64,000 bases of DNA, taken from contig CAVPIB010000001.1 in assembly GCA_963704885.1 (NCBI GenBank), positions 576,001 through 640,000 of the forward strand, read 5' to 3'. Numbering within the stretch: the stretch's first letter is position 1; each line of letters begins with the position of its first letter. The notes under the pieces are model-generated. The model was not told the origin of the DNA. It did not search any database and worked only from the letters and a program-made list of their open reading frames with translations. The translations under genes and the position numbers were made by a program. Shown piece after piece: positions 25,482 to 39,364 of this stretch. The stretch is from an uncultured Actinomycetes bacterium. GTDB taxonomy: Bacteria; Actinomycetota; UBA4738; HRBIN12.

Positions 25482-26538
25482 CGCCGAGCGCCTCCGTGCG
25501 CTGTCGCAGGAGCTGTGCGGGCGATTCCACGTAGGTCCAGTCGAACATCCACTCCACCGGCGGGGCCTCCGTCGCGACGACCGCTGCGCGGATCTCGGCG
25601 ACCCGGGCCTCCGCATCCGCCTCGCATCCGGTCACGAACGCCTCGTCGGCGTGGCCGGTCGCGAGCAGCCACGCGCGGTACCTGGCGATCGGGTCGAGGG
25701 CCCGCCAGCCCTCGACCTCCGCTTCGTCGCGATAGCGAGTGGCGTCGTCGGCCGTCGTGTGGGGGCCGACCCGGTAGGTCATGGCCTCGATCAGCGTCGG
25801 CCCGCCGCCCGCATGAGCGCGGGCCACCGCATCCTTCGTCACGTGGTACACGGCGAGCACGTCGTTGCCGTCCACGCGAACCCCGGGGAAGCCGTAGCCC
25901 TCGGCTCGCTTCCAGATCTCGCCGCTCGTCTGCGAAGTGGTCGGCACGCTGATCGCCCAGCCGTTGTTCTGGCAGAACAGGACCGCCGGCGAACGGAAGA
26001 CCGCCGCCATGTTCGCGGCCTCGTGGAAATCGCCCTCGCTGGCCGATCCATCGCCGAAGTACGCGATCGCACAGGCCTCGATGCCGTCCAGGCTTAGCCC
26101 CATCGCGTAGCCGACCGCGTGTGAGATCTGGGTTGCGGTCGGCACGCAGATCGGCGCGAACCGCGTGGCCCGCGGGTCGTAGGGACCACCGTGCCATGTG
26201 CCTCGGTGGTAGTGCAGGTACTGGACGGGGTCGACCCCGCGGACCAGGGCCACCGCCAGTTCTCGGAACGACGGGAAGACGAAGTCCTGGGCGCCCAGGG
26301 CGAAGGCCGACCCGACCTGGGCGGCCTCCTGGCCTTCGAACGGGGGGTAGACGGTCAGCTCACCCTGGCGCTGCAGAGCCATGCACTCGCGATCGAGCCG
26401 GCGCCCCAGGACCATCCAGCGCAGCAGCTCTCGTAGTTCGTCCGGTGTGAGGCCGACGTCGGTGTCGCCGACGGGGGTGCCGTCGGGCGCGATGAGGCGG
26501 AACGGCTCGCTGCCGCCCCGTGGATCGGCGGTGGACAA
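25474..26538 (-). CDS. 2-oxoacid dehydrogenase E1 alpha
   Basis: GQEAAQVG, FGDG..SEGDFHE..N, QNN.WAIS, YR..HTTADD. Confidence 0.93.
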   Translation of the reverse strand: MSTADPRGGSEPFRLIAPDGTPVGDTDVGLTPDELRELLRWMVLGRRLDRECMALQRQGELTVYPPFEGQEAAQVGSAFALGAQDFVFPSFRELAVALVRGVDPVQYLHYHRGTWHGGPYDPRATRFAPICVPTATQISHAVGYAMGLSLDGIEACAIAYFGDGSASEGDFHEAANMAAVFRSPAVLFCQNNGWAISVPTTSQTSGEIWKRAEGYGFPGVRVDGNDVLAVYHVTKDAVARAHAGGGPTLIEAMTYRVGPHTTADDATRYRDEAEVEGWRALDPIARYRAWLLATGHADEAFVTGCEADAEARVAEIRAAVVATEAPPVEWMFDWTYVESPAQLLRQRTEALGDA

Positions 26539-26578
26539 GGCTTCAGCTCCTGCACCGGGAACGCCGAGAGCATAGGGG

Positions 26579-27412
26579 ATGGCGCCGTTCGCTAGACTCC
26601 GCGACGTGGTTCCCAGCGCCTACCTCCGCGTGTACCAGCCGCTCGATGCGTTCGATCGTCAGGAGCAGTTGCACTGGGAGCGCTACCTGGTCGACGGTGC
26701 GCGATCCACGTCGCTCCGGCCCAGGTATGCGGACCGCGTGACCAGCGGACGCTTGGGCATCATGGCGCCGTCCGACGGCGAGCACGCCGAGATCCGCGTG
26801 ATCGACGGCCGGACGTACGTGAGTCCCTGGCGGATGCGCCTTCGCGTGCTGGGCGCGCTGCTCTCGTTCGCGGGATCAGAGCCGCTGGAGCTCTCTGACC
26901 AGTACGTCACGAAGAAGGACGCCAAGCGGGCGGCGAAGGAGCTGGTCCGGTTCCGGCGGCGCGACCCCCGCGGGGTGGTCTTCGTGCATCAGAGCCCGTG
27001 GCACGTTCCGATCCGCTGGTTCGTGCTCTTCGATGACGGCGATCGATGGTTGGGTGAGGATGAGTTCGACCGGACCCGACTCCGCTACCACACGACCGCC
27101 CGGCGAGCGATGCGCCGCGCGGAACGCGCCATCCCGGTGCTCCGCCGGACGGACCTGGGACCGATCTCAGAGTTGATCTTGGACCTGCACCAGTGGTTGG
27201 CGGCGTTCGACCCGGGCTCGCTCTTGGAGCTCGACTACGCCTCGTTGTGCGACTTCATGAGCTGGGACGAGCTCGACGACGACCGGTCTTCGCGCGATCT
27301 CCACGAGGCGCTGGATGCGCTCGAGCGCGAGGAGTTCCCGCGTTCGGCCGACATCTACCAGGGTGTCCTGACCCACTGGGCCGAGGTCCGCAGCCGCGAG
27401 ATCATGAACTGA
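26579..27412 (+). CDS. conserved actinobacterial hypothetical protein
   Basis: AYLRVYQPL, W.VP.RWF, WL..F...S..ELDY; coding-like GC3. Confidence 0.75.
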   Translation: MAPFARLRDVVPSAYLRVYQPLDAFDRQEQLHWERYLVDGARSTSLRPRYADRVTSGRLGIMAPSDGEHAEIRVIDGRTYVSPWRMRLRVLGALLSFAGSEPLELSDQYVTKKDAKRAAKELVRFRRRDPRGVVFVHQSPWHVPIRWFVLFDDGDRWLGEDEFDRTRLRYHTTARRAMRRAERAIPVLRRTDLGPISELILDLHQWLAAFDPGSLLELDYASLCDFMSWDELDDDRSSRDLHEALDALEREEFPRSADIYQGVLTHWAEVRSREIMN

Positions 27413-27442
27413 TGAGGATCGATGCGATCGGGATCCTGGTCG

Positions 27443-27515
27443 TGGCCAGGGGCAGAATCGAACTGCCGACACCGCGGTTTTCAGCCGCGTGCTCTGCCAA
27501 CTGAGCTACCTGGCC
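27443..27515 (-). tRNA. tRNA-Phe(GAA)
   Basis: GGCCAGGTAGCTCAGTTGGCAGAGCACGCGGCTGAAAACCGCGGTGTCGGCAGTTCGATTCTGCCCCTGGCCA cloverleaf; CCA not encoded. Confidence 0.96.
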
Positions 27516-27517
27516 TG

Positions 27518-27650
27518 GGCCGGTAGAAAACCTGGCAGAGATCGATACCGAGGTCATCACCAGCGCGTTGAAGTGTAGCGAGCGGAGGTGGGTCCGGGCT
27601 CGGTAACGCCATCTCGGCCTAAAGGATGTTTGCGAGACGACCTTGATCCC
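27518..27650. repeat. transposon end, copy A
   Basis: GGCCGGTAGAAA.CCTGGCAG...AGTGTAGCGAG...GTAACGCCATCT.GGCCT; alignable with 32503-32630 and partly with 31773-31866. Confidence 0.8.
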
Positions 27651-27679
27651 TGCCGGGGTGGTGCCGGGAGTGGAGTGAG

Positions 27680-28140
27680 TCAGGCGGCCGCTTCGAGGCC
27701 CCCAGCCGCTCTGTAGCGGGCCATCGTGAGCGCGTTGACCATCACAGCCCAGCCGAGCATCTCGACCTGCTGACGACGCCATCCCAGGCTGTGAGCCCTG
27801 CCGAGGAACAGCGTGTCCTCCAAGGACCGGTTGAGCGATTCGGAGTCGTTCCGGCGCCCGTAGAGACGCGGGAAGTCCGGGTCCGAGGGCGGGATGGGCC
27901 GAACGTTCTCTGTCCGGTTGAATTTGCGTCTGCGGTCGTCTTCGTTCTGATGGAGGCGAACGGTGATCTGCCCCCGCCCAGGTGCTCGGGCAGCCGGTAG
28001 TCGTTGTACCAGCGATACAGGCCTGAGTCGGCTGCCTTCATCCTGTGCGTTCTCTTGCGGGTGAGGGGGGCGAACTCCAGCTCACCCGCCTCTGTCGGGC
28101 GCATGAGGCCGATCGCGCCCGCTTCGGAGTACAGACGGGT
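27680..28140 (-). pseudogene. DDE-type transposase C-terminal fragment (frameshifted)
   Basis: YRWYNDYRLPEHLGGG / frameshift near 27968 / ITVRLHQ..FNRTENVRPIPPSDPDFPRLYGRRNDSESLNRSLEDTL..RAHSLG..LEAAA*; Y-x2-R-x3-E resembles the YREK motif of IS4/IS5-like transposases. Confidence 0.7.
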
Positions 28141-28452
28141 CACCCCTTCGACGACCCGACCGCGCCGAGCTCGCCGTTCGCGATGACGCAGTACCGACTC
28201 GAGGCGACGGCGGAGGCGAAGGAACTCGAGACGGCGGCCGACGCGCTCGCCGCCCAGGCGCGGGAGAACGTGCAACGGGCGACGAACTACGTGCTCGCCG
28301 TCGTGCTGCCGGCGGTCGTCCTGTTCTTCGCGGGCATCAGTACGAAGCTCGCCGATCCACGCCTTCGCCGTCGGATCCTCGGTGCGGCGGTCGTGGTCCT
28401 CGTGGCGACGGTGGTGTGGCTCGTCACCTCGCCCGTCAGCATCTCGGTCTGA
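28141..28452 (+). pseudogene. 5'-truncated membrane protein (3' end only)
   Basis: P..DP.AP.SPFAM..Y, then two TM helices; no start, fused to the transposase fragment. Confidence 0.6.
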
Positions 28453-28481
28453 GCCCGACCCCACCGCGCACGAGCCCGCGA

Positions 28482-31400
28482 TCACTGCACCCAGAGACGG
28501 CTCAGCAGCACGCCCCACTGGGGATGCACCTGCACGTTCCCGGTCCTGGCCGAGACGGGGAGCGTGACCACCGGATTCGCGAGCGGCACCTGCACGGCCT
28601 CGTCCACGAGCCGGTGCTCGATCGCCGTCCACGCCCGGTTCGCCTCGCCCGGGTCGGTGGCCTCGAGCGCCTTCGCCCCGGCGATCATCCGGTCGATCGC
28701 TCGGTCGCAGTAGCCCGCGATGTTGCTCCCTCCTCGGCAGCCGAACTGCGGCTCGATGAAGTCGCTCGCCAGCGGATATTCCGACACCCAGCCGTTGAAG
28801 AACACGTGCGGGTGTCCCGCCGAGCCGGGCGGGGCATCGTAGACCGACGGGAAGTACTGCTCGGGCCCTACGGTCTTCACCGTGGCGCGGAACCCGAGCT
28901 CGTTCAGCAGGTCGGCCACGTACCGCATCACCCCGTCCGTACCGGGCACCTGCGGAGGGACAGGCGACAAGACCATGACCTCCGTCCCCGCCACGCCGGC
29001 GTCGGCGATCAGCGAGCTCGCACGAGCGAGGTCCGGTCCGGTCCAGACGCCGCTGCCCGGGTCGAGGGAGTGGGGGCAGTACAGGGCATAGCCCTGGAAC
29101 CCCGGCGGGAGGACCTGGCAGGTGATCCGAACCGATCGCGGGCCGCCGAACAGGTCGGCCACCTGCGAACGGTCGACCGCGAGGCTCAGCGCCTCACGGA
29201 CGACGGGATCGTCGAAGGGAGCCTTGCGCACGTCCAGCCCCACGAACAACGTCCAGGGAAGCACGTTGACCACGGCCTGATCGGGGTGCTGGGTGAGCAA
29301 CGTCTCCACATCCTTCGGCGACGGGATGCCGGCCAGCAGGTCTGCGTCGCCGGCCAGGACCCGGTCGAACGACGCCTCGGGATCCTCGCCGTACCACCGG
29401 ACCGAGATCCGATCCACGAACCCGTCCGGCTGCGCAGCGGCCGACCACTCGTCGAACTCGGTGTTGCGGACGAGTTCGACGGCGAGCGCGTCGATCCGCT
29501 CGATCGCGTAGGGGCCGGTCGCCGGCACGCTGGCCACCTCCTCGACCGGGGTCGTCGACGGCACCACGCTGGCGAGCGGGAGCGCCAACTTGTAGAGGAG
29601 GTCCGGGTCCCGGCGCGTGAGGGAGATCGTCACGCCGGCGCCGTCGACCGCGATCGCGTCCTCGAGGTCGCAGCGGGCCGGTCGCTGCGAGCAGGCGCTC
29701 ACCCCGTCGATCGCGTCGAAGAGGTCGGCCGCGTACCCGTTCAGCGAGACCGCCCGCTCGATCGAGTGCCGCACGTCCTCTCCCTGTAGGGGCGCGCCCG
29801 TCGAGAAGGTGACGCCCTCTTCGAGCGTGAACCGGTACGTCAGACCGTCGTCGGTGACCTGCGGCATCGCGGTGGCCAGGTCCGGGACGAGCGTCGCTCC
29901 GCTTGGCCCACCCACCTTCTTGTAGGTCACGAGGCGGTCGTTCGTGATCGACAGGATCTGCGAGATGATCTGGTCCTCCGCGAACACGGGGTCGAGCGAG
30001 GTCGGTACGCCGGGGGCCTCCACGTGCAGGGTGCCGCCGCGGTGCTGCGCCGAGGACGCACCGGCGGCGATCCAGAGCCCGTCCGGGTCGGCCGCGAGCG
30101 ACGCCGACGTGCTCCCGGTCGGGGTCCTGCGCGCGATCGCGTTCGTCGCGGGATCGATCGCCACGATCGAGTCGCCGAGCTCGTTGGCCGCCCAGAGGAG
30201 ACCGCCGGACGCGGCCAGCGCGTTCGGCCCTTCGCCCACCGACACCTTCGCCTCCTCGATCCCGGTCGCGGGGTCGACGCGGGAGACGGTGCCGTCGAGG
30301 TGGTTCGCGACCCAGATCGAATCGAACGCCGACGTGACCGCGGTCGGCCCGTTCCCCACGTTCTGCGTCAGTGTGATCGTCTCGGTCGTCGGGTCGATCC
30401 GAGCGATCTCCGCCGGCGCGATCGTGACCCAGACACCCTCGGGCGTGAACGCGACGCCCGCCGGCTCACCCGGGAGGGGGATCGAGACCGCCTCACCGGT
30501 CGAGGCGTCGATCCGGAGGAGCTGGGTACCGACCGAATCGGCCACCCAGAGCGCCCCGGTTCCCGAGGAGACGGCGACCGGCGTGGTCCCCGCCTCGAAC
30601 GACTGGCTCGGCTCGTTCGTCTCCGGATCGATCCGGTGGAGCCGACCGCCGGCGGCGTCCGTCACCCAGACGGCGTCGTCGTCGATCGCGATCCCCGAGG
30701 GCGTGCCGCCGACCCCGATCGTGTCGACGATCGTGGCGCTGTCAAGATCGATCCGCGCGACCCGGCCCCGGTCGGGCCAGGCGATCCACAGGCTCCCGAA
30801 CCCGATCGCGCTCGCCCCGGGCCGCTCCTCAAGCGGCACCGTCTGCTCGAGCCGCTCGCCCGTGGGGTCCAGCCGGGCGGCGGTGTTCGCGGGGATCGCG
30901 ATCGGCCCGTCGTCGGACCCGATCCGCGGGACGACGACCGCGACGAGCGCGAGGGCGACGAGCACCGCGACGCCGACGGTCCATCGGGTGACCCGGCGTC
31001 GGGATGCCGTGTCCGGCTCGATCGCCGCGAGGCGCTCGGCTGCCTCGCCGGGGTCGGCGGGCGCGCGCCGGGGCTCGCCGTCGACCTTCGTGACGGCGCG
31101 GACGCGCCAGGCGCCGTCGAGCCCCTTCAGGGTGTGCTCGCCACGTTCCTCGAACCCGAAACCGGCGCCGGCGACCAGCTCGCTCGTCGACGCGGTCACG
31201 AGCACGTCGCCGGCGCCGCCGAGCGACATCACGCGCGCGCCGACCACGACGGCGAGGCCGCCGAGCTTTCCCCGACCCGCTCGCACTCGCCGAAGTGCAC
31301 GCCGGCGCGGATCTCGATCCCGAACGCGCGGACCGCGTCCGCGGCCGCGCAGGCGCAGCGGATCGCGGCGGCGGGCTCGGAGAAGCTCGCGAAGAACCCG

Positions 31401-31582
31401 TCCCCAGCGGTGTCGAGCTCGCGGCCCCCGAAGCGTTTCAGCTCTCGTCGTACCGCCGCGTGGTGGCGGGCGATCAGCTCCTTCCACCTCGCGTCGCCGA
31501 TGCGGCTCGCGACGGCGGTCGAGTCGACGATGTCCGTGAACAGGACGGCGGCGAGGATGCGCGAGGCCGAACGTCCGCTCAT
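28482..31582 (-). pseudogene. class III nucleotide cyclase-TM-beta-propeller-family 5 solute-binding fusion, one frameshift
   Basis: LFTDIVDST, DTAGDGFF, RAGVHFGE (31582-31275), then another frame KLGGLAV..GARV..LKG, TM, repeated GxLWVA/RIDP blades, SLDP..LVPDLA..TYRF.L..G..FS.G, ATGPY; 1-nt shift in the C run 31270-31273. Confidence 0.85.
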
Positions 31583-31663
31583 GCGGCCGTAGTGTCGCCG
31601 AAGATGCATCGAAACGCGAGCAGCGCCCTGCCTCCGACCATCCCGGTCGCTACACTCGTCGGC

Positions 31664-31736
31664 GGAGACGTTCCTGAGTGGCCGAAAGGAGCCGCCTGCT
31701 AAGCGGTACTCGGGGAAACACCAACCCCGATCGGGG
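31664..31736 (+). pseudogene. truncated tRNA-Ser(GCT)
   Basis: GGAGACG TT CCTGAGTGGCCGAAAGG A GCCGC-CTGCTAA-GCGGT and a long variable arm TCGGGG..CCCCGA; T-loop and 3' acceptor strand missing; TACACT -10 at 31651. Confidence 0.8.
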
Positions 31737-31772
31737 AGGCGGCGAGTCAGGCGGCCGCTTCGAGGCTGGCCT

Positions 31773-32486
31773 GGCCGGTAGAAATCCTGGCAGAAATCGA
31801 ACCAGGGCCCTGTTCCGGGACACCCGAGTCAAGCGACTCGAGGAGACTTGGTCCCGGTAACGCCGATGTCTCTACGTTGTTGCGGTTTCGGCCCAGACCG
31901 ATTCCGTGTTGGGCTTGTGCCGGGGTTGGGGAAGTCCGGCGGCTAGCCACCCGCTCGGGATCACTTCCAACCCGGCACGTGCCCGGCTTGCTCGATCCAG
32001 CTTCGCATCTCCTGCCCCTGCGCCTCGTTCAGCGACGTCACCTTGACGTAGCGGGTGCGCTCAGTGGTTCCAAGCGGCGGCGGAGGGTCGAATGCCCCAC
32101 CGCCGAAGAAGACGACGTTCACCGAGACGTCGTAGGCGACCATCTCGATGATCCACCCAAGGTTTGGCAACCCGTAGTACGCCTTCTTCCACTTGATCGC
32201 GTAGTGGAGTCCGGGGATCGACTCGCGGATCGATGTATCGAGATGCGTCACGATGGGGTGCAAGTCCGGCATCACGCGCCGGATCCAATCGTCGATGTCG
32301 GCGTGGCTGTCGGAGGGGACGGGCGGCTTTCGTGACGCATTCGGCTTGCGCGATTTCTCCATCGATCCTCCTCCTCTGCGGGATGGTCAGGAGTGGCAAC
32401 TCGGCGTTACCGAATCGCCGATATCCGTTACCAGCTGGTTTGCAACACGGCGTGTGATCTGGGGCGGAAGCGATTTCTACCGCCCC
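31773..32486. mobile_element. non-autonomous ~715 bp element carrying a DUF1801 gene
   Basis: Inverted ends GGCCGGTAGAAAT (31773-31785) / ATTTCTACCGCC (32473-32484) and subterminal CGGTAACGCCGA (31855-31866) / TCGGCGTTACCG (32401-32412). Confidence 0.75.
31961..32362 (-). CDS. DUF1801 (YdhG-like) protein
   Basis: LD..IRE.IPGL.YAIKW..AYYG, VFF.G..FDPPPP; GAGGAGG RBS. Confidence 0.8.
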   Translation of the reverse strand: MEKSRKPNASRKPPVPSDSHADIDDWIRRVMPDLHPIVTHLDTSIRESIPGLHYAIKWKKAYYGLPNLGWIIEMVAYDVSVNVVFFGGGAFDPPPPLGTTERTRYVKVTSLNEAQGQEMRSWIEQAGHVPGWK

Positions 32487-32502
32487 GACCTGGCCCGGCC
32501 CG

Positions 32503-32630
32503 GGCCGGTGGAAGACCTGGCAGGAATCGGCTCCGAGGTGATCACCAACGCGTTCGAGTGTAGCGAGTGGAAGCCGGGCTGGGCATAGTAACGCCATCTT
32601 GGCCTGAAGGGTGCTCGTGCAGCCCTGATC
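32503..32630. repeat. transposon end, copy C
   Basis: GGCCGGTGGAAGACCTGGCAG..CCGAGGT.ATCACCA.CGCGTT..AGTGTAGCGAG..GTAACGCCATCT.GGCCT, colinear with copy A. Confidence 0.8.
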
Positions 32631-32981
32631 CTGCCCGGAGTTGCGGTGGATCGCGAGCGTGACTCGAGCGAGACCTGAAATCCGACCTGCGACGGTCAGC
32701 ACCTCGTCTCGATCACGGGGCGTTATTCGGCATGTGAACCGAATGATGAAGACCGTCTGGGTTTCCCCACGGTTGAGGCGGAACTCTCTGCCGGCCGGGT
32801 ATGGAAGCGAACGCAGACAACCGATCTGGCGCTGGGCGCGGAGCTCATGCGTTCGAGTAACAACCGCCCTCGCGCGCAGCGAGGCCGATCGCAGTCACCC
32901 GAGCATAGTCCCTGCGATAGTGGTGACCGCGTGCCGCCATCATCGGTAGCCCTCAAGAAGCTACCCAGGGAGTCCCCAAAG

Positions 32982-33920
32982 ATGTCGCTGGTTTCCAGAC
33001 TCAAGCCGAACGGACCGAGTGGCTTCGGGTATGGCTCGACCGCCGAGGATGTCACCGAAGGCCTTGACCTGGGCGGTCGGACCTACCTGGTTACCGGTGC
33101 GACCTCCGGGATCGGCTTCGAGACGATGCGGGTGCTGGCGCTGCGCGGCGCCCGAGTGATCGCCGTCGGCCGCACGGAGCAGACCGCGGGCGCCGTGGCC
33201 GCGAGAGTCGTCGGGGCCGCCCTCCCCGTCGCCTGCGAGCTGACCGATCCCTCGTCCACCATGGCGTGCGCCGACTGGCTTCGCGCCGAGGACATCCGCC
33301 TGGACGCGATCATCTGCAACGCCGGCATCATGTCTATCCCGGAGCTCCAGCTGGCCTGCGGCTACGAGTTGCAGTTCTTCAACAACCACATGGGCCACTT
33401 CATCCTGGTCTCGCGCCTTCTCGACTCGCTCACGGCAGACGGCCGCGTCGTGGTCGTGAGCAGCAACGCGCACAAGACCGCCCCGAAGGAAGGGATCGAG
33501 TTCGACAACCTGTCGGGGGAGCGCCGCTATCGACCTGCGAGTTCCTACGCGCAGTCCAAGCTCGCGAACCTGCTATTCGCGAAGGAACTCGCACGCCGCC
33601 TCGGGGACACGGGAAGGACGGCCGATGCGGTTCACCCAGGAGCCGTGAGCACCAACCTGGCTCACCACATGTCAAGAGCGGCGCGAGCCGTGATCGGCGT
33701 CGGGCTACGCATCGCCGGCCCCTTGATGCTGAAGACCATCGGCCAGGGAGCGGCAACACAGTGCTACGTCGCTACCCAACCGGGCTTGAGGGCGACCGGC
33801 GAGTACTTCGTCGACTGCAACATCGCTCAACCCAGCGCGCTTGCCAGCGATGCGGACCTGGCCCGGCGTCTCTGGGAGCGATCCGAACGGATCTCCGGCG
33901 AGGTGCTCTCCGACGCATGA
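32982..33920 (+). CDS. SDR oxidoreductase (retinol dehydrogenase/WWOX-like)
   Basis: VTGATSGIG, CNAGIM, N.MGHF, VSS.AH, YAQSKLAN, VHPG. Confidence 0.9.
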   Translation: MSLVSRLKPNGPSGFGYGSTAEDVTEGLDLGGRTYLVTGATSGIGFETMRVLALRGARVIAVGRTEQTAGAVAARVVGAALPVACELTDPSSTMACADWLRAEDIRLDAIICNAGIMSIPELQLACGYELQFFNNHMGHFILVSRLLDSLTADGRVVVVSSNAHKTAPKEGIEFDNLSGERRYRPASSYAQSKLANLLFAKELARRLGDTGRTADAVHPGAVSTNLAHHMSRAARAVIGVGLRIAGPLMLKTIGQGAATQCYVATQPGLRATGEYFVDCNIAQPSALASDADLARRLWERSERISGEVLSDA

Positions 33921-33957
33921 CCACGATCGCGAACCACGACACCCTAGGAGGTACACC

Positions 33958-34953
33958 ATGAAGGCATGGATCTACCGGAACTACGGCTCACCGGACGTCC
34001 TGAGCTTCGAGGACATCGAGGTCCCGACCCCGAAGGCTGACGAAGTGACGGTGCGGGTGCAGGCGAGCGGCCTGAATGCGGCTGACTGGCACATCATGCG
34101 AGCGGATCCGTTCCTCGCTCGGCTGGCAGTGGGCCTGCGAAAGCCGCGCAAACCCATGATCATCGGCTCAGATCTCGCTGGCACTGTCGAAGCCGTTGGC
34201 TCGAAGGTCACGCGCCTGGCCGTTGGCGACAAGGTCTACGCCGAATCCATGATGAAGGGCGGGTGCGCGGAGGTGATCGTCCTGAACGAGGACCACGTCG
34301 CCCACATGCCGAAGAGCGTGACGTTCGAGCAGGCAGCAGCGGTGCCGATGGCCGCTACCAGCGCACTGGCGGCAGTTCGCGATGATGGCGGCGTGCAGCC
34401 GGGACAGTCGGTGCTGGTCATCGGCGCATCAGGCGGGGTCGGCACGTTCGCGGTGCAGATGGCATACGCCCTTGGGGGGAAGGTCACGGCGGTGTGTCGC
34501 ACCGAGGCGATCGACCTGGTGCGCTCGCTTGGCGCGGAAGAGGTCATCGACTACACCGTTGAGGACCCGACCTCCTCCGGACGCACGTATGACGTCATCG
34601 TGAACATCGGCGGCACCCACTCGCTCAAGGCCCTGCGTGGGACGTTGGCGCCCAAGGGGACCCTGGCAGGGGTCGGCGGCTCCCAACACGGAGGTTTGCT
34701 CGGCCCAGGTTCGGTCGGCACCCGCGGCAAGTTCGTCTCGCCGTTCGTGTCGCAGCAGTTGAAGTCCGTCGGCCGCAAGGGCAACTTCACCGATCTCGGC
34801 ACCATCGCCGAGATGATCGACAAGGGTGACGTGAAGCCCGTGGTCGATCGCGTCTTCCCGTTCAGCGAGACACCGGATGCGATGCGCTACGTCGAGGACG
34901 CACACCCGAAGGGCAAGGTCGTCGTCACTGTCGGGAGCGACTCCGGGTCATAG
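33958..34953 (+). CDS. MDR-family NAD(P)H:quinone oxidoreductase-like protein
   Basis: YGSPDVL, GSDLAG.VEAVG, GASGGVG.FAVQ.A, KGKVV; AGGAGG RBS. Confidence 0.9.
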   Translation: MKAWIYRNYGSPDVLSFEDIEVPTPKADEVTVRVQASGLNAADWHIMRADPFLARLAVGLRKPRKPMIIGSDLAGTVEAVGSKVTRLAVGDKVYAESMMKGGCAEVIVLNEDHVAHMPKSVTFEQAAAVPMAATSALAAVRDDGGVQPGQSVLVIGASGGVGTFAVQMAYALGGKVTAVCRTEAIDLVRSLGAEEVIDYTVEDPTSSGRTYDVIVNIGGTHSLKALRGTLAPKGTLAGVGGSQHGGLLGPGSVGTRGKFVSPFVSQQLKSVGRKGNFTDLGTIAEMIDKGDVKPVVDRVFPFSETPDAMRYVEDAHPKGKVVVTVGSDSGS

Positions 34954-34959
34954 GGGCTC

Positions 34960-35060
34960 GGTCAGGCGCGTACGCATCCCGGATGGGCGACTTCTTGAAC
35001 CCCTTGGCGATCAGGTAGATCCCGAGGAACCCTTCCAAACGATCTCTGGAACCTCGGCTA
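34960..35060 (-). pseudogene. possible DUF4386-like membrane protein C-terminal remnant
   Basis: VPEIV[W]EGFLGIYLIAKGFKK readable across a 1-nt frameshift. Confidence 0.4.
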
Positions 35061-35159
35061 GGAGGCCCGGCGGGCCATAGGTACTTGACGCCCGTCACGG
35101 TCACGGTTTCACGTTCCTGTCAGGGTGGACCGTGTCGATCGACGCGTCATCTGACTAAG

Positions 35160-35453
35160 ATGACCATCATGGTCAGAGCGGGAGACACCGTGGGGGTCGC
35201 GGAAGCCAAGGCCAAGCTGTCCGAGTTGCTGGAGCGTGTCGCGAACGGAGAGCGCATCACGGTCTCCCGGCGGGGCCGTCCCGCAGCCGTGCTCGCGCCA
35301 CCCGATGCCGCATTCGAGCCCGCGGGGCACAACACCGGACTAGCGACGCTTGCTGGCGTCCTGGCGGACTGGCCGGAGCTCGAGGCCGACATGCGCGTGG
35401 TCATGCGCTCGAGGCGCACCGCTCGCGATCGGGCGGTGCCCGACCCGCGGTGA
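35160..35453 (+). CDS. Phd/YefM-family antitoxin
   Basis: VGVAEAKAKLSELLERV..GE.I.V.RRG.P.A.L; overlaps the vapC start. Confidence 0.9.
   Translation: MTIMVRAGDTVGVAEAKAKLSELLERVANGERITVSRRGRPAAVLAPPDAAFEPAGHNTGLATLAGVLADWPELEADMRVVMRSRRTARDRAVPDPR
35161..35175. promoter_or_regulatory. putative TA operator palindrome
   Basis: TGACCAT-C-ATGGTCA at the antitoxin start. Confidence 0.5.
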
Positions 35454-35896
35454 CCACCTACTGTTTCGATACCGACGTACTCTCGGCCACGATGCGCCGC
35501 GATCCGCCGCTCCATCTGATCAGGCTCCTGGCGGCGACTCCCCCGACCGCACAGTGCACCACGTCGATCACGCTCGGCGAGCTCGTCTACGGCGCGGCGA
35601 AAGCCGGGAGCGACCGTCTCGCTGAGCGTGTCCGCGAGCTCGTCAGCGGTGCGGTGCGCGTGGTGTCGTTCGACGCGGCGGCCGCCGAGGTCTACGGGCC
35701 GCTCCGAGCGGCGCTCGAGGCAGGCGGGAAGCGTCTCGCTGAGCCCGATCTCCGCATCGCCTCGATCGCCCTGTCCCTCGACCTCACCTTGGTCACGGGC
35801 AACCTTCGTCACTTCGCCCGAGTGCCCGGCCTGCACGTCGAGGACTGGATCACGGTTCCGCCGGGCACCCGACCGGACCCCGAGCTCCCGAGCTAA
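35450..35896 (+). CDS. vapC: VapC PIN-domain toxin
   Basis: FDTDV, SIT.GEL.YG, DL.IASIAL, LVT.N.RHF..VPGL..EDW. Confidence 0.92.
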   Translation: MTTYCFDTDVLSATMRRDPPLHLIRLLAATPPTAQCTTSITLGELVYGAAKAGSDRLAERVRELVSGAVRVVSFDAAAAEVYGPLRAALEAGGKRLAEPDLRIASIALSLDLTLVTGNLRHFARVPGLHVEDWITVPPGTRPDPELPS

Positions 35897-36046
35897 CCCG
35901 CGGGTCGGGTCACCAGCGTGACCCGCTGGGTGGTGTCTGAGGATGAGCGACCGTTCTCCGCCACGATGTGGGGGAAGGATCGCCCAAGACAAGACGGGAC
36001 TCTAGATGTTGCCCAACGAGCAACCGCCGACCTGGCCCGGTGGATC

Positions 36047-36124
36047 TGGCGCGGGTGACGGGCTTCGATCCCGCGATCTTCGCCTTGACAGGGCGATGAG
36101 GACTCCGGACTCCTCCACACCCGC
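36047..36124 (-). tRNA. tRNA-Asp(GTC)
   Basis: GCGGGTG..TCGCC-CTGTCAA-GGCGA..GCGGG-ATCGAAG-CCCGT-CACCCGCGCCA; atypical T-loop. Confidence 0.9.
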
Positions 36125-36144
36125 GTGTATGTGATTGTGCTGCG

Positions 36145-36217
36145 TGCCCCCAACGGGATTCGAACCCGTGCCGCCGCCTTGAAAGGGCGGTGTCCTAGGC
36201 CGCTAGACGATGGGGGC
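36145..36217 (-). tRNA. tRNA-Glu(TTC)
   Basis: GCCCCCATCGTCTAGCGGCCTAGGACACCGCCCTTTCAAGGCGGCGGCACGGGTTCGAATCCCGTTGGGGGCA; TATACT -10 at 36261-36266. Confidence 0.96.
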
Positions 36218-36291
36218 TTACCCAGCTGCTCAGCGGCCACATCCGAGGCGCAGCCGGAAGAGTATAGCGACGGCGGCGTAGCCCCCACCCG

Positions 36292-36603
36292 CTACGTGCC
36301 AGGACCGAGCCGGTCGCCGACGCGAACGGCGGCGCCGATGTGACACTCGAGCACCCGGCGTGCGCGACGGCAGAACAGGAGCCTTCCGGGACGTGCCCGG
36401 ACCACGCGGAGCACACGCCAGGAGCGATCCAGGAAGACGACCGTGATAGGCAAGCGCATCCCGATCGTGTGCACCGACCGGCAATCTTCCAGAAGCAGGG
36501 CGTCGCGCGGATCTACCCGATGGCGGCCGAGCCATCCGCGTCGCCGCTCCCGCCGCGTCACCGGCCGCTCAGCGCTCCACGGCCCGACTGTCACGCGGTC
36601 CAT
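36292..36603 (-). CDS. DUF192-family protein
   Basis: R..G.LGR, SVHT.GMR.PI.VVFLD, VLE. Confidence 0.8.
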   Translation of the reverse strand: MDRVTVGPWSAERPVTRRERRRGWLGRHRVDPRDALLLEDCRSVHTIGMRLPITVVFLDRSWRVLRVVRARPGRLLFCRRARRVLECHIGAAVRVGDRLGPGT

Positions 36604-36645
36604 CGGCGGAACGTAGCTCCGCGTACCGACACGCCGGTCGCCGAG

Positions 36646-36720
36646 TGGGCCTGGCAGGATTCGAACCTGCGACACGAGGGTTAAAAGCCCCCTGCTCTAA
36701 CCGGGCTGAGCTACAGGCCC
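36646..36720 (-). tRNA. tRNA-Lys(TTT)
   Basis: GGGCCTGTAGCTCAGCCCGGTTAGAGCAGGGGGCTTTTAACCCTCGTGTCGCAGGTTCGAATCCTGCCAGGCCCA; TACAAT -10 at 36730-36735. Confidence 0.96.
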
Positions 36721-36864
36721 TACCGCGGGATTGTACGGACATGCCCTCTGACTTGGGCGTTCTCACTTTCCCGTTACTTCTCGCGGATACCCGACGTTTC
36801 TCTTCATCTTGCGGGCCGCATCGCTCTACAGGTTCAGGGCCCGCCGGGTGTTGAACTGGTCAGG

Positions 36865-37401
36865 ATGGGAGAGGTGGCTGGCCTTCGGCGGATGTGGAAG
36901 GGTCCCGATGAACCGATGGACTCAGAGCCTCCCACCTTCGAGGGTTTCTTCGAGGAGGAGAAGGAACGCCTCCTCCGGATCTTGTCGGTCATCACCGGGC
37001 GCCGGTCCGAGGCGGAGGATCTGGCCCAGGAGGCGTTCACCAAGGTGTTCGAGCGCTGGGACACGGTGGCAGCGATGGCGGACCCTGCGGGGTACCTGCA
37101 CGTGACCGCCATGAACCTGTTCCGCAACCAGTACCGGCGCGCCCGGGTGGCCCTCAGCCGGGCCGGGGGGTTCGGGCCGGAGCAGGACGTGTTCAAGCCC
37201 GTGGAGGATCGGGATGCCGCCGCCCGGGCCCTGGGCGCACTCACGCCCCGGCAGCGCGCCGCCCTGGTGCTGACCGAGGCCCTCGGCTACTCGGGCGAGG
37301 AGGCGGGGCAGCTCCTAGGCATCAAGGCCTCGACCGTGTGGGCGCTCACCCATCAGGCTCGGGCGGCGCTGCAGGGAACCGTGGAGGTGACCGATGCCTA
37401 G
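36865..37401 (+). CDS. ECF sigma factor (module 1)
   Basis: AEDLAQEAF....RW, YL...AMN.FR, LTPRQR.A.VL; start uncertain (36865 or 36916). Confidence 0.9.
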   Translation: MGEVAGLRRMWKGPDEPMDSEPPTFEGFFEEEKERLLRILSVITGRRSEAEDLAQEAFTKVFERWDTVAAMADPAGYLHVTAMNLFRNQYRRARVALSRAGGFGPEQDVFKPVEDRDAAARALGALTPRQRAALVLTEALGYSGEEAGQLLGIKASTVWALTHQARAALQGTVEVTDA

Positions 37402-39364
37402 CGACCGTTCGCTCGTCGAGCGCGAGATGGAGCGCGTTGAGCTCCGCCCGTTCACGCTCGAGGGGTTCCATCGCCGTCGCCAGCGGAAGGAGCGGAACCG
37501 CCGGATCCGCGCGGGCGTCGTTGCCCTCGTCGTCGCGGTCGCAGGGGTCGGCGCGCTCGTTTCGGCCTTCTCCTCGGGCCCCGTCCCTGCGGGCGATCCC
37601 CGCAGCCCCTTCCTGGGCACCTGGGTCTCCACCAGCGACGCCGACGGGGGCACGCAGACGATGATCGTCCGGGTCTCCGCCGATGACGCCGTCGAGATCA
37701 CGGTGACCGACGACGTCGCCTCGGAGTGCTCGGGCACCCCGTCGACGATGACGGGGACCGGACGGATCGAGGCCGGCACGCAGCTCACCATCCCCGCGCC
37801 CGTGTACACGTGCGACGACGGGAGCGAGGCCGAAACCTTGAGCGGGCCTCCGCTCGAGGAACTGCTCCGCGATTGGACCTTGTTCCTCGACCCTCAGACC
37901 GACACCCTCACGGACGGCGTCGGCGGCGTGTGGCTGCGGGAGGGGGCGGAGGTCCCGAGCCCCGATCCGCTCGGGGGGCTCGACGAGGCGCCGTGGGACC
38001 CGAGCCTCTTCGGCGGCACCTGGGTGTCGACGGCCGCCGACACCGGGTTCCTCGGGACGTGGGAATCGACCGATGTGGACGGGAGCTCCCTCCTCCTCGG
38101 GATCCGCCCGTCCGAGGACCCCTCCGGCGGGTACGAGGTCTTGCTCCTCGACGGCGCGCTCGACGGCGCGCAGCCCTGCTACTCCTCGGGGTGGAACAGC
38201 CTCGGCACCGGCCCGATCACCATGACCGGGATCGGGCGGGTCGAGGGACGGGAGCTGGCCATGGACTCCCAGACCTGGTTCTGCGAGGGCGAGCCCGGGC
38301 CGGACGTCGTGACGGGAGACCGGAGCCTCCAGCTAGCGGCCGCCCACACGCCACTCGTCCACGATCCCGAGACCGACACCCTCGTCGGTCCCGCTGGCAG
38401 GACGCCTGGTGCTCCTTCCTGGATGCAGGGTTACGGCGTGGTGTGGCATCGACGCCCTCCCGGGAGCGACCCGCTCGCGGTCCCGTTCTGGGGGGTCTGG
38501 CCCCAGACGAGCGTGGAGGAAGCCCAGGAAGCCCAGCGGCGGGCCGACGCAGGCGACCCCGCATTCACCTGGCAGCTCGCCCCGGAGCTTGCGACCGAGC
38601 CGGTGTCCGAGGGGCTCCCGATCCCCGGGATGGACGCCAAGGACGGTGCGGAGATCGTGGTCCGGTTCTTCCGGGACGTCCTCGGGTGGGACGAGTACCT
38701 GACCGTCGCCAGGCGCAACCCGTATTGGCAAGGGGACGCCGGGTGGTCGTTCGTGCGGATCCGGTGCGGTCCAGGGACGAATCCCCTGTACCCGAACGAC
38801 CCGAACGGAGGGGACTGCCCGCCCACGATCGGCGACACCCACTACGAGACGGTCTCGCTGATGCTCACGCAGCCCGTCCGGAGCGGCCCGTCCGGGATCT
38901 GGGTGGTCACCGGCTGGACGGAGCTCGTCCCATCGGGCGAGCCAGCCAGCGACCTCCGCTACCACGAGTGGGTGAGTCGGCAGTACGAGCAGGTGATCCC
39001 GCCCACCGAGGCCGAGCTGGTGGAAGCCCTCGAGGCGTTCCTATCCGCCAGGGTGGCTGGCGAGGGGGCCGAGGCGTACCTGACCGAGGGGTACTACCGG
39101 CCCCGCCCCTTTGTCCCGCTCCTGTACGCCACGACCGAGGGCCGTCGATACGAGGGGTTCGAGATCGGGAGGGTGGAGGGGCCGGTTTGGCCGGCCGGGG
39201 TCTACGCGGTGACGGTGCGGCTGTTCGCCCGTGGAGGGCAGGACGTCGTGGAGCAGGATTTCGCCGTCTGGCCGGGCTCCGGAGGGCAACTGACGATGGA
39301 CGCGGGGCGGGAGCAGACCAGGGAGAACGGCGAGCCGGTGCCCGACCGTTTCGGCTCGGAGTAG
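37394..39364 (+). CDS. single-pass membrane protein, putative anti-sigma factor with large extracytoplasmic region (module 1)
   Basis: Short basic cytoplasmic N-terminus (RRRQRK.R.RR), TM helix, FLGTW.ST.D.DG repeats, ~290 aa domain shared with 41271-42941; overlaps the sigma gene. Confidence 0.8.
   Translation: MPSDRSLVEREMERVELRPFTLEGFHRRRQRKERNRRIRAGVVALVVAVAGVGALVSAFSSGPVPAGDPRSPFLGTWVSTSDADGGTQTMIVRVSADDAVEITVTDDVASECSGTPSTMTGTGRIEAGTQLTIPAPVYTCDDGSEAETLSGPPLEELLRDWTLFLDPQTDTLTDGVGGVWLREGAEVPSPDPLGGLDEAPWDPSLFGGTWVSTAADTGFLGTWESTDVDGSSLLLGIRPSEDPSGGYEVLLLDGALDGAQPCYSSGWNSLGTGPITMTGIGRVEGRELAMDSQTWFCEGEPGPDVVTGDRSLQLAAAHTPLVHDPETDTLVGPAGRTPGAPSWMQGYGVVWHRRPPGSDPLAVPFWGVWPQTSVEEAQEAQRRADAGDPAFTWQLAPELATEPVSEGLPIPGMDAKDGAEIVVRFFRDVLGWDEYLTVARRNPYWQGDAGWSFVRIRCGPGTNPLYPNDPNGGDCPPTIGDTHYETVSLMLTQPVRSGPSGIWVVTGWTELVPSGEPASDLRYHEWVSRQYEQVIPPTEAELVEALEAFLSARVAGEGAEAYLTEGYYRPRPFVPLLYATTEGRRYEGFEIGRVEGPVWPAGVYAVTVRLFARGGQDVVEQDFAVWPGSGGQLTMDAGREQTRENGEPVPDRFGSE

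Follow-up and report, generated by a model that had tools for sequence, protein, structure and literature searches.

The window analysed here is a stretch of 64,000 nucleotides from an uncultured Actinomycetes bacterium (assembly GCA_963704885.1, contig CAVPIB010000001.1, positions 576,001 to 640,000). On its minus strand the genes for tRNA-Glu, tRNA-Asp and tRNA-Phe form a run that is broken between Asp and Phe by an island of 8.5 kb. The island is a head-to-tail stack of three decayed elements, termed C, B and region A, of an unannotated actinobacterial transposon family whose members end directly in front of the first nucleotide of tRNA genes.

The interrupted tRNA run and its empty counterpart

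The distance between tRNA-Asp and tRNA-Phe in the window is 8,531 bp (ARAGORN). The tRNA-Phe gene is intact and is the sole one found in the genome (one of 53 tRNAs). Its positions 1–8, GGCCAGGT, were read directly in three minus-strand copies: in the gene itself (27508–27515), at a junction within the island (32488–32495) and 9 nt past tRNA-Asp (36030–36037), where the element comes next instead of the remainder of the tRNA. A 14-mer, CCGACCTGGCCCGG, is identical at 32485–32498 and 36027–36040, and a shortened copy of the 8-mer, GGCCAG, lies at 31766–31771 (minus strand). The repeated element end GGCCGGTRGAA is present at 27518, 31773 and 32503 and, inverted, at 32473–32484. The bare number of 8-mers in the window (ten against 2.1 expected; 0 of 100 shuffles attained ten) is only modestly informative, and the weight lies with the three copies that stand exactly at element ends.

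A first-pass annotation made from the letters alone had proposed the 8.5-kb split of the Glu–Asp–Phe run, the copies of the tRNA-Phe start with the 14-bp identity, the element ends and a YREK-like transposase remnant. Direct reading confirmed every coordinate, and the remnant proved to be real: its translation (28146..27683) is 88–93% identical to residues 316–459 of full-length homologues. The remnant has one frameshift near 27935–27967, its N-terminal two thirds are deleted, and it matches Pfam DDE_Tnp_1 weakly (E 1.3e-3, under the cut-off). The same annotation had reported no integrase. This holds for the island in the window, where a Pfam search of nine open reading frames (ORFs) found no integrase and the best tblastn match to the recombinase-like protein described below had E 7.5. 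It does not hold for autonomous relatives, which carry a conserved tyrosine-recombinase-like gene, predicted to be catalytically dead, together with a helix-turn-helix (HTH) gene.

The tRNA-Phe and tRNA-Glu/Asp genes were located in 60 related genomes. In nine of the 12 same-genus genomes (eight without the unpublished G008) Asp and Phe are 8–9 bp apart. The empty site was read as sequence in seven of these (...CGCGCCA GATCCACCG GGCCAGGTAGCTCAG) and is indicated by coordinates only in two more (G003 and G008). The empty site in the seven genomes is Asp-GATCCACCG-GGCCAGGTAGC, and the filled site in the window is Asp-GATCCACCG-GGCCAGGT / CGGCGGTT...CCGGCCCA / GGCCAGGTAGC, with the left junction GATCCACCG-GGCCAGGT / CGGCGG; the repeat is exactly the first 8 nt of the tRNA. 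Another genome of the genus (G010) has a different insert of 7.4 kb at the identical point, and in G006 the two tRNAs are on separate contigs, the contig with the transposase ending 8 nt into the tRNA. In other genera of the family the gaps are 0–47 bp or are filled by inserts of 1.0, 1.9, 10.3, 18.9, 31.8, 40 and 63 kb. On this survey of empty and filled sites, the Asp–Phe adjacency is ancestral and the point is an insertion hotspot.

Read on the minus strand from 36046, the order is tRNA-Asp, GATCCACCG, GGCCAGGT, element C, GGCCG, GGCCAGGT, element B, GGCCAG, region A and tRNA-Phe (Table 1). All three units share the terminus on the tRNA side, two tandem TTTCTRCC boxes followed by CCGGCCC(G/A), which in A and C is preceded by about 100 nt of 79% identity (27509–27628 against 32494–32613, 79% over 120 nt). 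In element B the left repeat CGGGGCGGTAGAAATC faces CGGGCCGGTAGAAATC, the reverse complement of the right end.

Table 1. Features of the island and its flanks in the window, in order of position.
Feature	Position	Strand	Basis or remark
tRNA-Phe(GAA)	27442–27515	minus	ARAGORN; Rfam 69 bits
Right end of element A, 164 nt, non-coding	27516–27679	minus	Sequence repeats and alignments
Right end A: inverted repeat with two tandem TTTCTRCC boxes	27516–27547		
Right end A: −10-like TACACT	27572–27577		−62 from tRNA +1
Right end A: subterminal GGTAACGCC	27602–27610		
Transposase remnant (stop 27680–27682)	27680–28146	minus	Residues ~316–467 of a 467-residue DDE transposase
Possible small membrane-protein ORF, region A	28045–28452	plus	
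Region A interior	28147–31743		Without recognizable left end
Frameshifted large gene, beta-propeller and SBP_bac_5	28482–31609	minus	Pfam
23-nt exact copy of transposase 3' end and stop (= 27677–27699)	31744–31766	minus	100%, query 162–184
Shortened duplication GGCCAG adjoining right end of B	31766–31771	minus	Direct reading
Element B, 716 bp, non-autonomous	31772–32487	minus	Inverted repeats
B: right inverted repeat	31772–31787	minus	
B: DUF1801 gene, sole cargo	31961–32362	minus	Pfam E 4.5e-8
B: left end, two subterminal GGTAACG repeats	32403–32434		
B: left inverted repeat CGGGGCGGTAGAAATC	32472–32487	minus	
C/B junction: full GGCCAGGT	32488–32495	minus	Direct reading
C/B junction: extra GGCCG	32496–32500	minus	Direct reading
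Element C, 3,529 bp	32501–36029	minus	Deletion derivative of an autonomous copy
C: right end	32501–32613	minus	
C: HTH-gene remnant, 36 codons	32763–32870	plus (expected strand)	Match E 1.8e-4
C: SDR	about 33084–33920	plus	Pfam
C: zinc-type ADH (alcohol dehydrogenase)	33958–34953	plus	Pfam
C: Phd/YefM antitoxin	35169–35453	plus	Pfam
C: PIN/VapC toxin	35450–35896	plus	Pfam
C: degenerate left repeat CGGCGGTTGC	ending at 36029	minus	
Native Asp–Phe spacer GATCCACCG, 9 nt	36038–36046	minus	Upstream flank of the original target, with tRNA-Asp
tRNA-Asp	36047–36124	minus	ARAGORN; Rfam agrees
tRNA-Glu	36144–36217	minus	ARAGORN; Rfam agrees
tRNA-Lys	36645–36720	minus	ARAGORN; Rfam agrees

The large cargo gene of region A is split into a 126-residue ORF (31229–31609), which from a reading of the ORF we take to be approximately the first half of a class III cyclase domain, and a 1001-residue ORF with the beta-propeller and SBP_bac_5 domains; the gene is thus either decayed to a pseudogene or wrongly assembled. 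The 23-nt copy of the transposase end is fused to the shortened duplication GGCCAG. Deletion scenarios for the left boundary of region A and this copy were considered, and none fits without two events. The sequence TCGCTACACT, the −10-like box of Phe-type right ends, occurs once on the plus strand at 31640–31665, near the 23-nt copy, and could be chance or a scrap of an inverted end. The cargo of the window is absent from the same-site islands of eight other genomes and is therefore no clue to the history of the stack. Neither the right end nor the transposase fragment was found elsewhere in the 3.0-Mb genome, and tRNA-Phe alone of its 53 tRNA genes is preceded by the end boxes. As the genome retains no transposase, the stack is probably immobile and fixed.

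The D-loop of the tRNA-Phe in the window has a T (GCTCAGTTGG), and all seven same-genus empty-site genomes that were read (L033–L039) have an A (GCTCAGATGG). The T form is also found in other genera; the difference lies outside the 8-bp duplication. Elsewhere in the genome tRNA-Thr(CGT) is present three times, identical and with identical 40-nt upstream flanks (C1:23588, C12:3441 and C13:2014), and tRNA-Leu(TAG) is duplicated on contigs C14 and C19. These duplicates are probably assembly redundancy or strain mixture (the contamination of the genome is given as 4.5%). Each of 24 sequencing runs, available as contigs, contained at most 0.15 of the sampled words, and no conclusion on habitat, expression or excision was drawn from them.

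Position, ends and target duplication across the family

The remnant gene belongs to a family of proteins of about 467 residues (466–475 in complete members) that are labelled 'hypothetical protein' wherever they are named. The fragment found 392 proteins; among clusters at 50% identity with one representative each, 1,558 were found at E ≤ 1e-3 and 269 at E ≤ 1e-30. As judged from motifs and a predicted structure, the protein is a distant IS4/IS5/IS1182-like DDE transposase. Residues D156, D254, R412 and E416 are invariant and Y409 is nearly so (34 and 25 sequences), which gives the motif Y409-x2-R412-x3-E416. Weak matches to DDE_Tnp_1 were obtained for 21 of 34 members (best E 1.8e-4, all under the cut-off). 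The ESM Atlas model of the homologue P0017 (pTM 0.87) matches IS4-family and DUF772+DDE_Tnp_1 clusters with a TM score of 0.68 over 377 residues; the matched clusters carry PF01609 on 100% and PF05598 on 53% of their members, so that the RNase-H-like transposase fold is indicated indirectly, through the model of a homologue. A search by sequence for solved structures of the transposase gave none that was meaningful.

One genome per species was scanned, giving 79 loci, almost all in Actinomycetota. Most come from metagenome-assembled genomes (MAGs), and several contigs break at the element. For 68 loci at least 300 nt could be read past the gene; the other 11 end too early. An intact same-strand tRNA begins 157–233 nt past the transposase stop (mostly 160–182 nt) in 54 of the 68, including one (L092) that was counted after allowing for a frameshift in its transposase. 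In five the right end adjoins a tRNA-Arg that breaks off past the anticodon loop, so that its 5' half is left, and in nine it is followed by a spacer and the left end of another copy. The spacer at eight of these nine stacked junctions is 8 nt long and equal to a tRNA start (GGCCAGGT, GCCCTCGT, GCCCCCGT or GGGCCCGT). No informative locus had an unrelated flank (0 of 68). The five close homologues in related genomes are all encoded on the strand of tRNA-Phe, about 165 nt upstream of that gene, and more distant homologues adjoin tRNA-Arg(CCT) and tRNA-Ala(TGC).

The first-pass annotation had postulated a site-specific family at the tRNA 5' end that duplicates about 8–11 bp and leaves the tRNA intact, and had suggested that the flanks of homologues be tabulated and an empty Asp–Phe site be sought in relatives. 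The family and its site are borne out by all 68 informative loci, with no random insertion; at 8 bp the duplication falls at the bottom of the proposed range, with the tRNA intact; and the empty site exists as described above. Its choice of tRNA-Phe as the target was too narrow. Phe(GAA) is the target of one clade only, and the others use Arg(CCT), Arg(CCG), Lys(TTT), Thr(TGT), Thr(CGT) and Ala(TGC). In a quick maximum-likelihood tree of 53 transposases, of which the weakly supported forks were not used, the Phe clade (SH-aLRT 100) is nested among Arg(CCT) elements and Lys appears in at least three places. The target labels are clustered on this tree (18 changes against 27.1 when shuffled; 0 of 200 shuffles as low), a clustering that near-copies inflate. 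The complete genome of Aquihabitans sp. McL0605 has copies at both Thr(TGT) and Arg(CCT).

At the five loci with a halved tRNA (L074, L079, L084, L107 and L130) the tRNA-Arg is intact to the anticodon loop (e.g. ...GGTTTCCTAA) and the sequence beyond is unrelated. Apparently a further element, of the integrase type, came in from the 3' side, in which case both ends of one tRNA would serve as targets.

Inverted repeats of about 16–18 bp with an 8-bp duplication were found in two complete elements and in element B of the window. The complete elements, L068 (4,971 bp, at tRNA-Lys) and L089 (4,568 bp, at tRNA-Phe), both have their repeats flanked by the first 8 nt of the tRNA; the former reads GGGCCTCT / GGGGCCGGTAGAGAACCC ... 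CATGCCCC / GGGCCTCT-AGCTCA. At Phe-type loci ten of ten left repeats follow directly on GGCCAGGT, one of them shifted by 1 nt. In one related genome (G037) the tRNA-Phe starts with the variant GGCGAGGT, which recurs as GGCGAGG(T) at the three junctions inside its 63-kb stack; since the junctions match the local tRNA, it is the target that supplies the repeat and not the element. The Phe and Arg types fit either 8 bp or 7 bp plus T, and the symmetric ends of L068 favour 8 bp. At three other islands (G021, of 31.8 kb, G010 and G022) the junction on the Asp side either is degenerate or does not resemble the consensus of the left repeats.

Partial copies of the 8-mer also stand in tandem: GGCGAGG-GGCGAGGTA-GGCGAGG-GCGAGGT (four copies) in G037, GCCCTCG three times before tRNA-Arg in L120, GGCCAGGTGGCCAGGT in G028, GGCCAG-GGCCAGGT in L089 and GGCCG-GGCCAGGT at the C/B junction of the window. 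They look like excision footprints of elements that were once inserted, and the GGCCG between C and B suggests another element that came and left. Such footprints fit cut-and-paste transposition, since a DDE transposon that makes staggered cuts leaves them and a conservative recombinase does not. At position 3572 of L120, 4 kb upstream of the actual gene, 17 nt of the tRNA-Arg 5' end are repeated (GCCCTCGTAGCTCAGTT). This copy exceeds the 8-bp duplication in length and may have arisen by some other sort of event.

Internal to the repeats, the left end has two subterminal GGTAACG repeats (CGGAACG in the Arg types) and the right end one inverted copy. In the window they lie at 27602, 31856 and 32403 (four matches against 0.5 expected), and they are candidate sites for accessory proteins.

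Partner genes and the right end

A gene for a protein of about 320 residues lies directly upstream of the transposase gene, often overlapping its start codon. A match to this recombinase-like protein was found upstream in 54 of the 79 loci; in 39 its ORF is near-full-length and stops −8 to +105 nt from where the transposase starts. Most of the 25 loci that lack a match are 5'-truncated copies or contig starts. The protein matches Phage_integrase (E 5e-5) and, under their cut-offs, the XerA and XerD models. Among solved structures it is matched by XerA and XerD, a profile of 26 sequences finding XerA (5hxy) at E 1.2e-6. Of the catalytic residues aligned to XerA only the first Arg remains; both the His and the Arg of HxxR face non-conserved Ala, and the His of LGH faces Val or Met. 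The alignment stops before the tyrosine, whose expected position reads F/W/L/Y/H in the motif LG(M/V)RSLDRAAxxIG-x-DW. By these residues the protein is predicted to be a catalytically dead member of the tyrosine-recombinase fold. In 43 of 49 loci it is preceded by a divergent gene for 69–75 residues of the HTH_17 or excisionase-like type. In Tn6022 the target is selected by TnsF, described as an inactivated tyrosine recombinase (PMC10293859), and the protein found here resembles it in having the recombinase fold without the catalytic residues and in being encoded beside the transposase.

The three-gene order is also found at 28% identity on Mycobacterium plasmids, where RefSeq names the products 'helix-turn-helix', 'site-specific integrase' and 'hypothetical protein'. 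Full-length homologues of the transposase, 24–29% identical and called 'hypothetical protein', are present on Mycobacterium plasmids (five records) and one Streptomyces plasmid. On M. kansasii pMK12478 (L135, NC_022654.1, 35593–38458) the three genes carry these RefSeq names, and the right end retains the CGCTACACT box and TTTT boxes with no tRNA after them.

In 55 aligned right ends only the terminal ~32 nt (GGTTTTCTSCCA-SGTTTTCTNC-NNSCCCC) and a TANNNT box are conserved across clades. The box (TACACT, TAGACT, TACGAT and similar hexamers) starts −75 to −59 from the tRNA +1 in 43 of the 55; other 17-nt windows have it in 0–4 of 55. Among the 53 native tRNA genes of the genome 40 have TANNNT starting 8–30 nt upstream of +1, and in 16 it is TAGACT; this is a strong signature of native tRNA promoters in the lineage. 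At the empty site tRNA-Phe follows 9 nt behind tRNA-Asp, which leaves no room for a promoter of its own, and after insertion the sole tRNA-Phe lies 8.5 kb from the Asp operon. From the position of the box, and because this tRNA is cut off from its operon and is yet the only copy in the genome, we infer that the box is a putative outward promoter that would keep the displaced tRNA expressed. In decayed copies, in the window and at L089, L106, L119 and L128, what remains is the right end with the final third of the transposase gene; a promoter would explain the survival of their right ends.

Mechanism, alternatives and significance

Taken as a whole, the observations are very probably explained by a stack of site- and orientation-specific DDE transposons that insert at tRNA +1. 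A complete member consists of a left inverted repeat, variable cargo, the small divergent HTH gene, the dead recombinase gene, the transposase gene of about 467 codons and a right end of about 165 nt, and its right end lands immediately before nucleotide +1 of one particular tRNA gene. The DDE protein would carry out the chemistry; a staggered cut across tRNA positions 1–8, once filled in, would restore the whole tRNA to the right of the element and strand an 8-bp copy to its left. Later arrivals would again choose the intact tRNA and push older copies upstream, and excision would leave tandem partial copies of the 8-mer. For the window, C would be the oldest, an autonomous copy with SDR, ADH and VapBC cargo, from which a single internal deletion then removed half of the HTH gene together with the genes for the recombinase-like protein and the transposase. 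B, the DUF1801 carrier, would have come next, and region A would be the youngest right end, its left part gone.

As to the choice of target, TAGCTCA at positions 8–14 is common to all target tRNAs seen and is present in 25 of the 53 tRNA genes of the genome, and each clade keeps to one tRNA. In the stacks the next element is at the intact tRNA and never at an orphan 8-mer; the determinant would therefore lie inside the tRNA gene, downstream of the cut. A DNA-binding protein on the gene body that fixes distance and orientation would fit, and the dead recombinase is the obvious candidate: by analogy with TnsF it may, alone or with the HTH protein, read the tRNA gene body and position the transposase.

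Several observations weigh against this account or narrow it. One stacked junction (L111) has just 3 nt between the two ends, and region A lacks a left end and starts with the 23-nt transposase-end copy that fits no single-event scenario. The succession of right end, 8 bp and left end would equally be expected at a circle or dimer junction. The 28%-identical module on the M. kansasii plasmid is not beside a tRNA, so that tRNA targeting is established just for the sampled clade, of at least 44% identity to the query. At least four loci (L086, L087, L097 and L130) have a near-full-length transposase with no recombinase match at E ≤ 1e-5 in 6 kb upstream. The DDE_Tnp_1 scores are 15–19 bits against a Pfam cut-off of 23, the NCBIfam models gave no match to the transposase at E ≤ 1, and the catalytic role of the first two Asp residues (D156 and D254) is assigned by invariance. 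The target-selector roles of the recombinase and the HTH protein are predicted. For the promoter, an E. coli-type promoter and terminator scan of the right end gave 0 sites, so the argument is the position-specific TANNNT box.

Of the other explanations, an integrase-type island comes nearest, although we consider it improbable. Here a tyrosine recombinase, the element's own or one acting in trans, would join the tRNA 5' end to an attP of inverted binding sites around the 8-bp overlap GGCCAGGT, the DDE protein being a passenger or accessory. The reconstructed junction GATTTCTACCGGCCCG-GGCCAGGT-CGGGGCGGTAGAAATC does resemble a core of the lox/FRT type, with inverted arms and an 8-bp spacer; the element has a conserved gene for a recombinase fold and another for an Xis-like HTH protein, and RefSeq names the Mycobacterium homologue 'site-specific integrase'. 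The recombinase, however, lacks the second catalytic Arg and both His residues in the 26 aligned sequences and has no conserved Tyr in the C-terminal motif of the 39 ORFs. The DDE/YRE residues of the transposase are invariant at 45–92% identity, which implies selection on catalysis. Moreover, conservative recombination is unable to make the tandem partial copies seen at many junctions, and the junction 8-mers of G037 track the local tRNA variant.

RNA-guided targeting is still less probable. The right end of about 165 nt would then encode a guide RNA that pairs with the tRNA gene, as the bridge RNA of IS110 does. The constant length of the non-coding segment between transposase and tRNA (157–233 nt, mostly 160–182) and the recurrence of GCCAGGT within the Phe-type right end would suit such a guide. 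For 54 right ends, however (left ends were not part of the comparison), the longest exact match averages 7.22 nt to the own tRNA and 7.22 nt to non-targets; in L058, where the tRNA starts with GGCGAGGT, the internal box is still GCCAGCA; outside the terminal and TANNNT boxes the right end is unconserved between clades; and Rfam at E ≤ 1 finds only tRNAs over 26500–37500. That nothing is mobile, and that the locus shows ordinary conserved tRNA neighbours or a MAG assembly or binning artefact, is scarcely credible: most loci come from MAGs and several contigs break at the element, but the idea is contradicted by the empty sites, with precise presence and absence within one genus, by the inverted repeats and 8-bp duplications, by the same module beside different tRNAs in one genome (Aquihabitans sp. 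McL0605) and by cargo that differs between islands.

Transposition at tRNA +1 was compared with known systems. Integrase-borne tRNA islands (phages, integrative and conjugative elements and their actinomycete counterparts, AICEs) integrate at tRNA 3' ends. The family shares with them tRNA landing sites, tandem stacking, short flanking direct repeats and preservation of the tRNA. It differs in using the 5' end and in its inverted repeats and footprints; only 8 bp are repeated, derived from the target, and they are tRNA positions 1–8 and not a 3' part of the tRNA carried and duplicated by the element. Its recombinase-fold protein has kept only the first Arg of the catalytic R-H-R-Y set. With IS4, IS5 and IS1182 elements (DDE_Tnp_1, DUF772 and DDE_Tnp_1_6) it has in common the fold (TM 0.68), the Y-x2-R-x3-E motif, inverted repeats and a duplication of several base pairs, yet it falls under the Pfam cut-off, matches no NCBIfam insertion-sequence model, keeps or needs two extra genes, carries kilobases of cargo and is strict in site and orientation. 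Unlike IS110 it has a DDE_Tnp_1-like and not a DEDD transposase, and its right ends have no excess complementarity to their own tRNA.

Tn7 makes a 5-bp duplication, and the Tn7-like elements known to use tRNA genes sit downstream of them. As Tn7-like elements do, the family inserts in a single orientation and at a set distance from a conserved, essential or safe, site, which it spares, and turns a particular end towards the target; it likewise carries cargo and accumulates islands at one site. It differs in its 8-bp duplication, in sitting at tRNA +1 and in its core of an HTH protein, a dead recombinase and a single IS4/IS1182-like DDE protein, without TnsA, TnsB, TnsC or TniQ, a machinery that is far smaller than that of Tn7 and not related to it. 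Pfam and NCBIfam found no TnsB/TnsC/TniQ-type domains in the three core proteins, nor were any present in the ORF list of L068; the cargo of large islands was only partly scanned. TnsF is described as having a zinc-finger N-terminus, which Pfam did not find in the family recombinase.

Among DDE transposons aimed at tRNA genes the nearest analogue appears to be Dada, as outlined in PMC3706591: a eukaryotic superfamily with 6–7 bp duplications whose families target specific sites in tRNA or snRNA genes and whose transposase, resembling those of IS256, MuDR and hAT, is of a different family. As portrayed there, Dada inserts inside multicopy genes and disrupts them, whereas the targets of the bacterial family are single-copy tRNA genes, which stay whole. 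The retroelement Ty3 is reported to integrate in a narrow window at the Pol III start and, with TRE5-A, provides a further eukaryotic likeness in aiming at tRNA genes. No description of bacterial DDE transposons at tRNA 5' ends, or of this family, was found in the literature searched, with subscription journals, supplements and ISfinder outside the search.

For the window the gain is a clean annotation of the 8.5-kb island as three decayed elements with cargo. A DDE family that lands at nucleotide +1 would give tRNA-linked islands a second origin, by a different mechanism, and one that annotation pipelines miss because the transposase is labelled 'hypothetical' and its partner 'integrase'. With it a transposon would, for the second time and independently, have recruited a dead tyrosine recombinase, in this case without the Tn7 machinery, and a two- or three-protein system for site-specific insertion would become directly testable. 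Experiments are feasible, since cultured hosts exist (Aquihabitans). Tentatively, and with rather less confidence than an even chance would warrant, all of this may be read together: the elements would be widespread, undescribed, compact protein-guided transposons in which the dead recombinase, with the HTH protein, reads the tRNA body and places the DDE cut at positions 1–8; they would have been retargeted repeatedly, from Arg(CCT) to Phe, Lys, Thr, Arg(CCG) and Ala; and the right-end promoter would replace that of the tRNA, so that an essential single-copy tRNA comes to depend on a transposon end. If true, this dependence would explain why the right ends outlast everything else.

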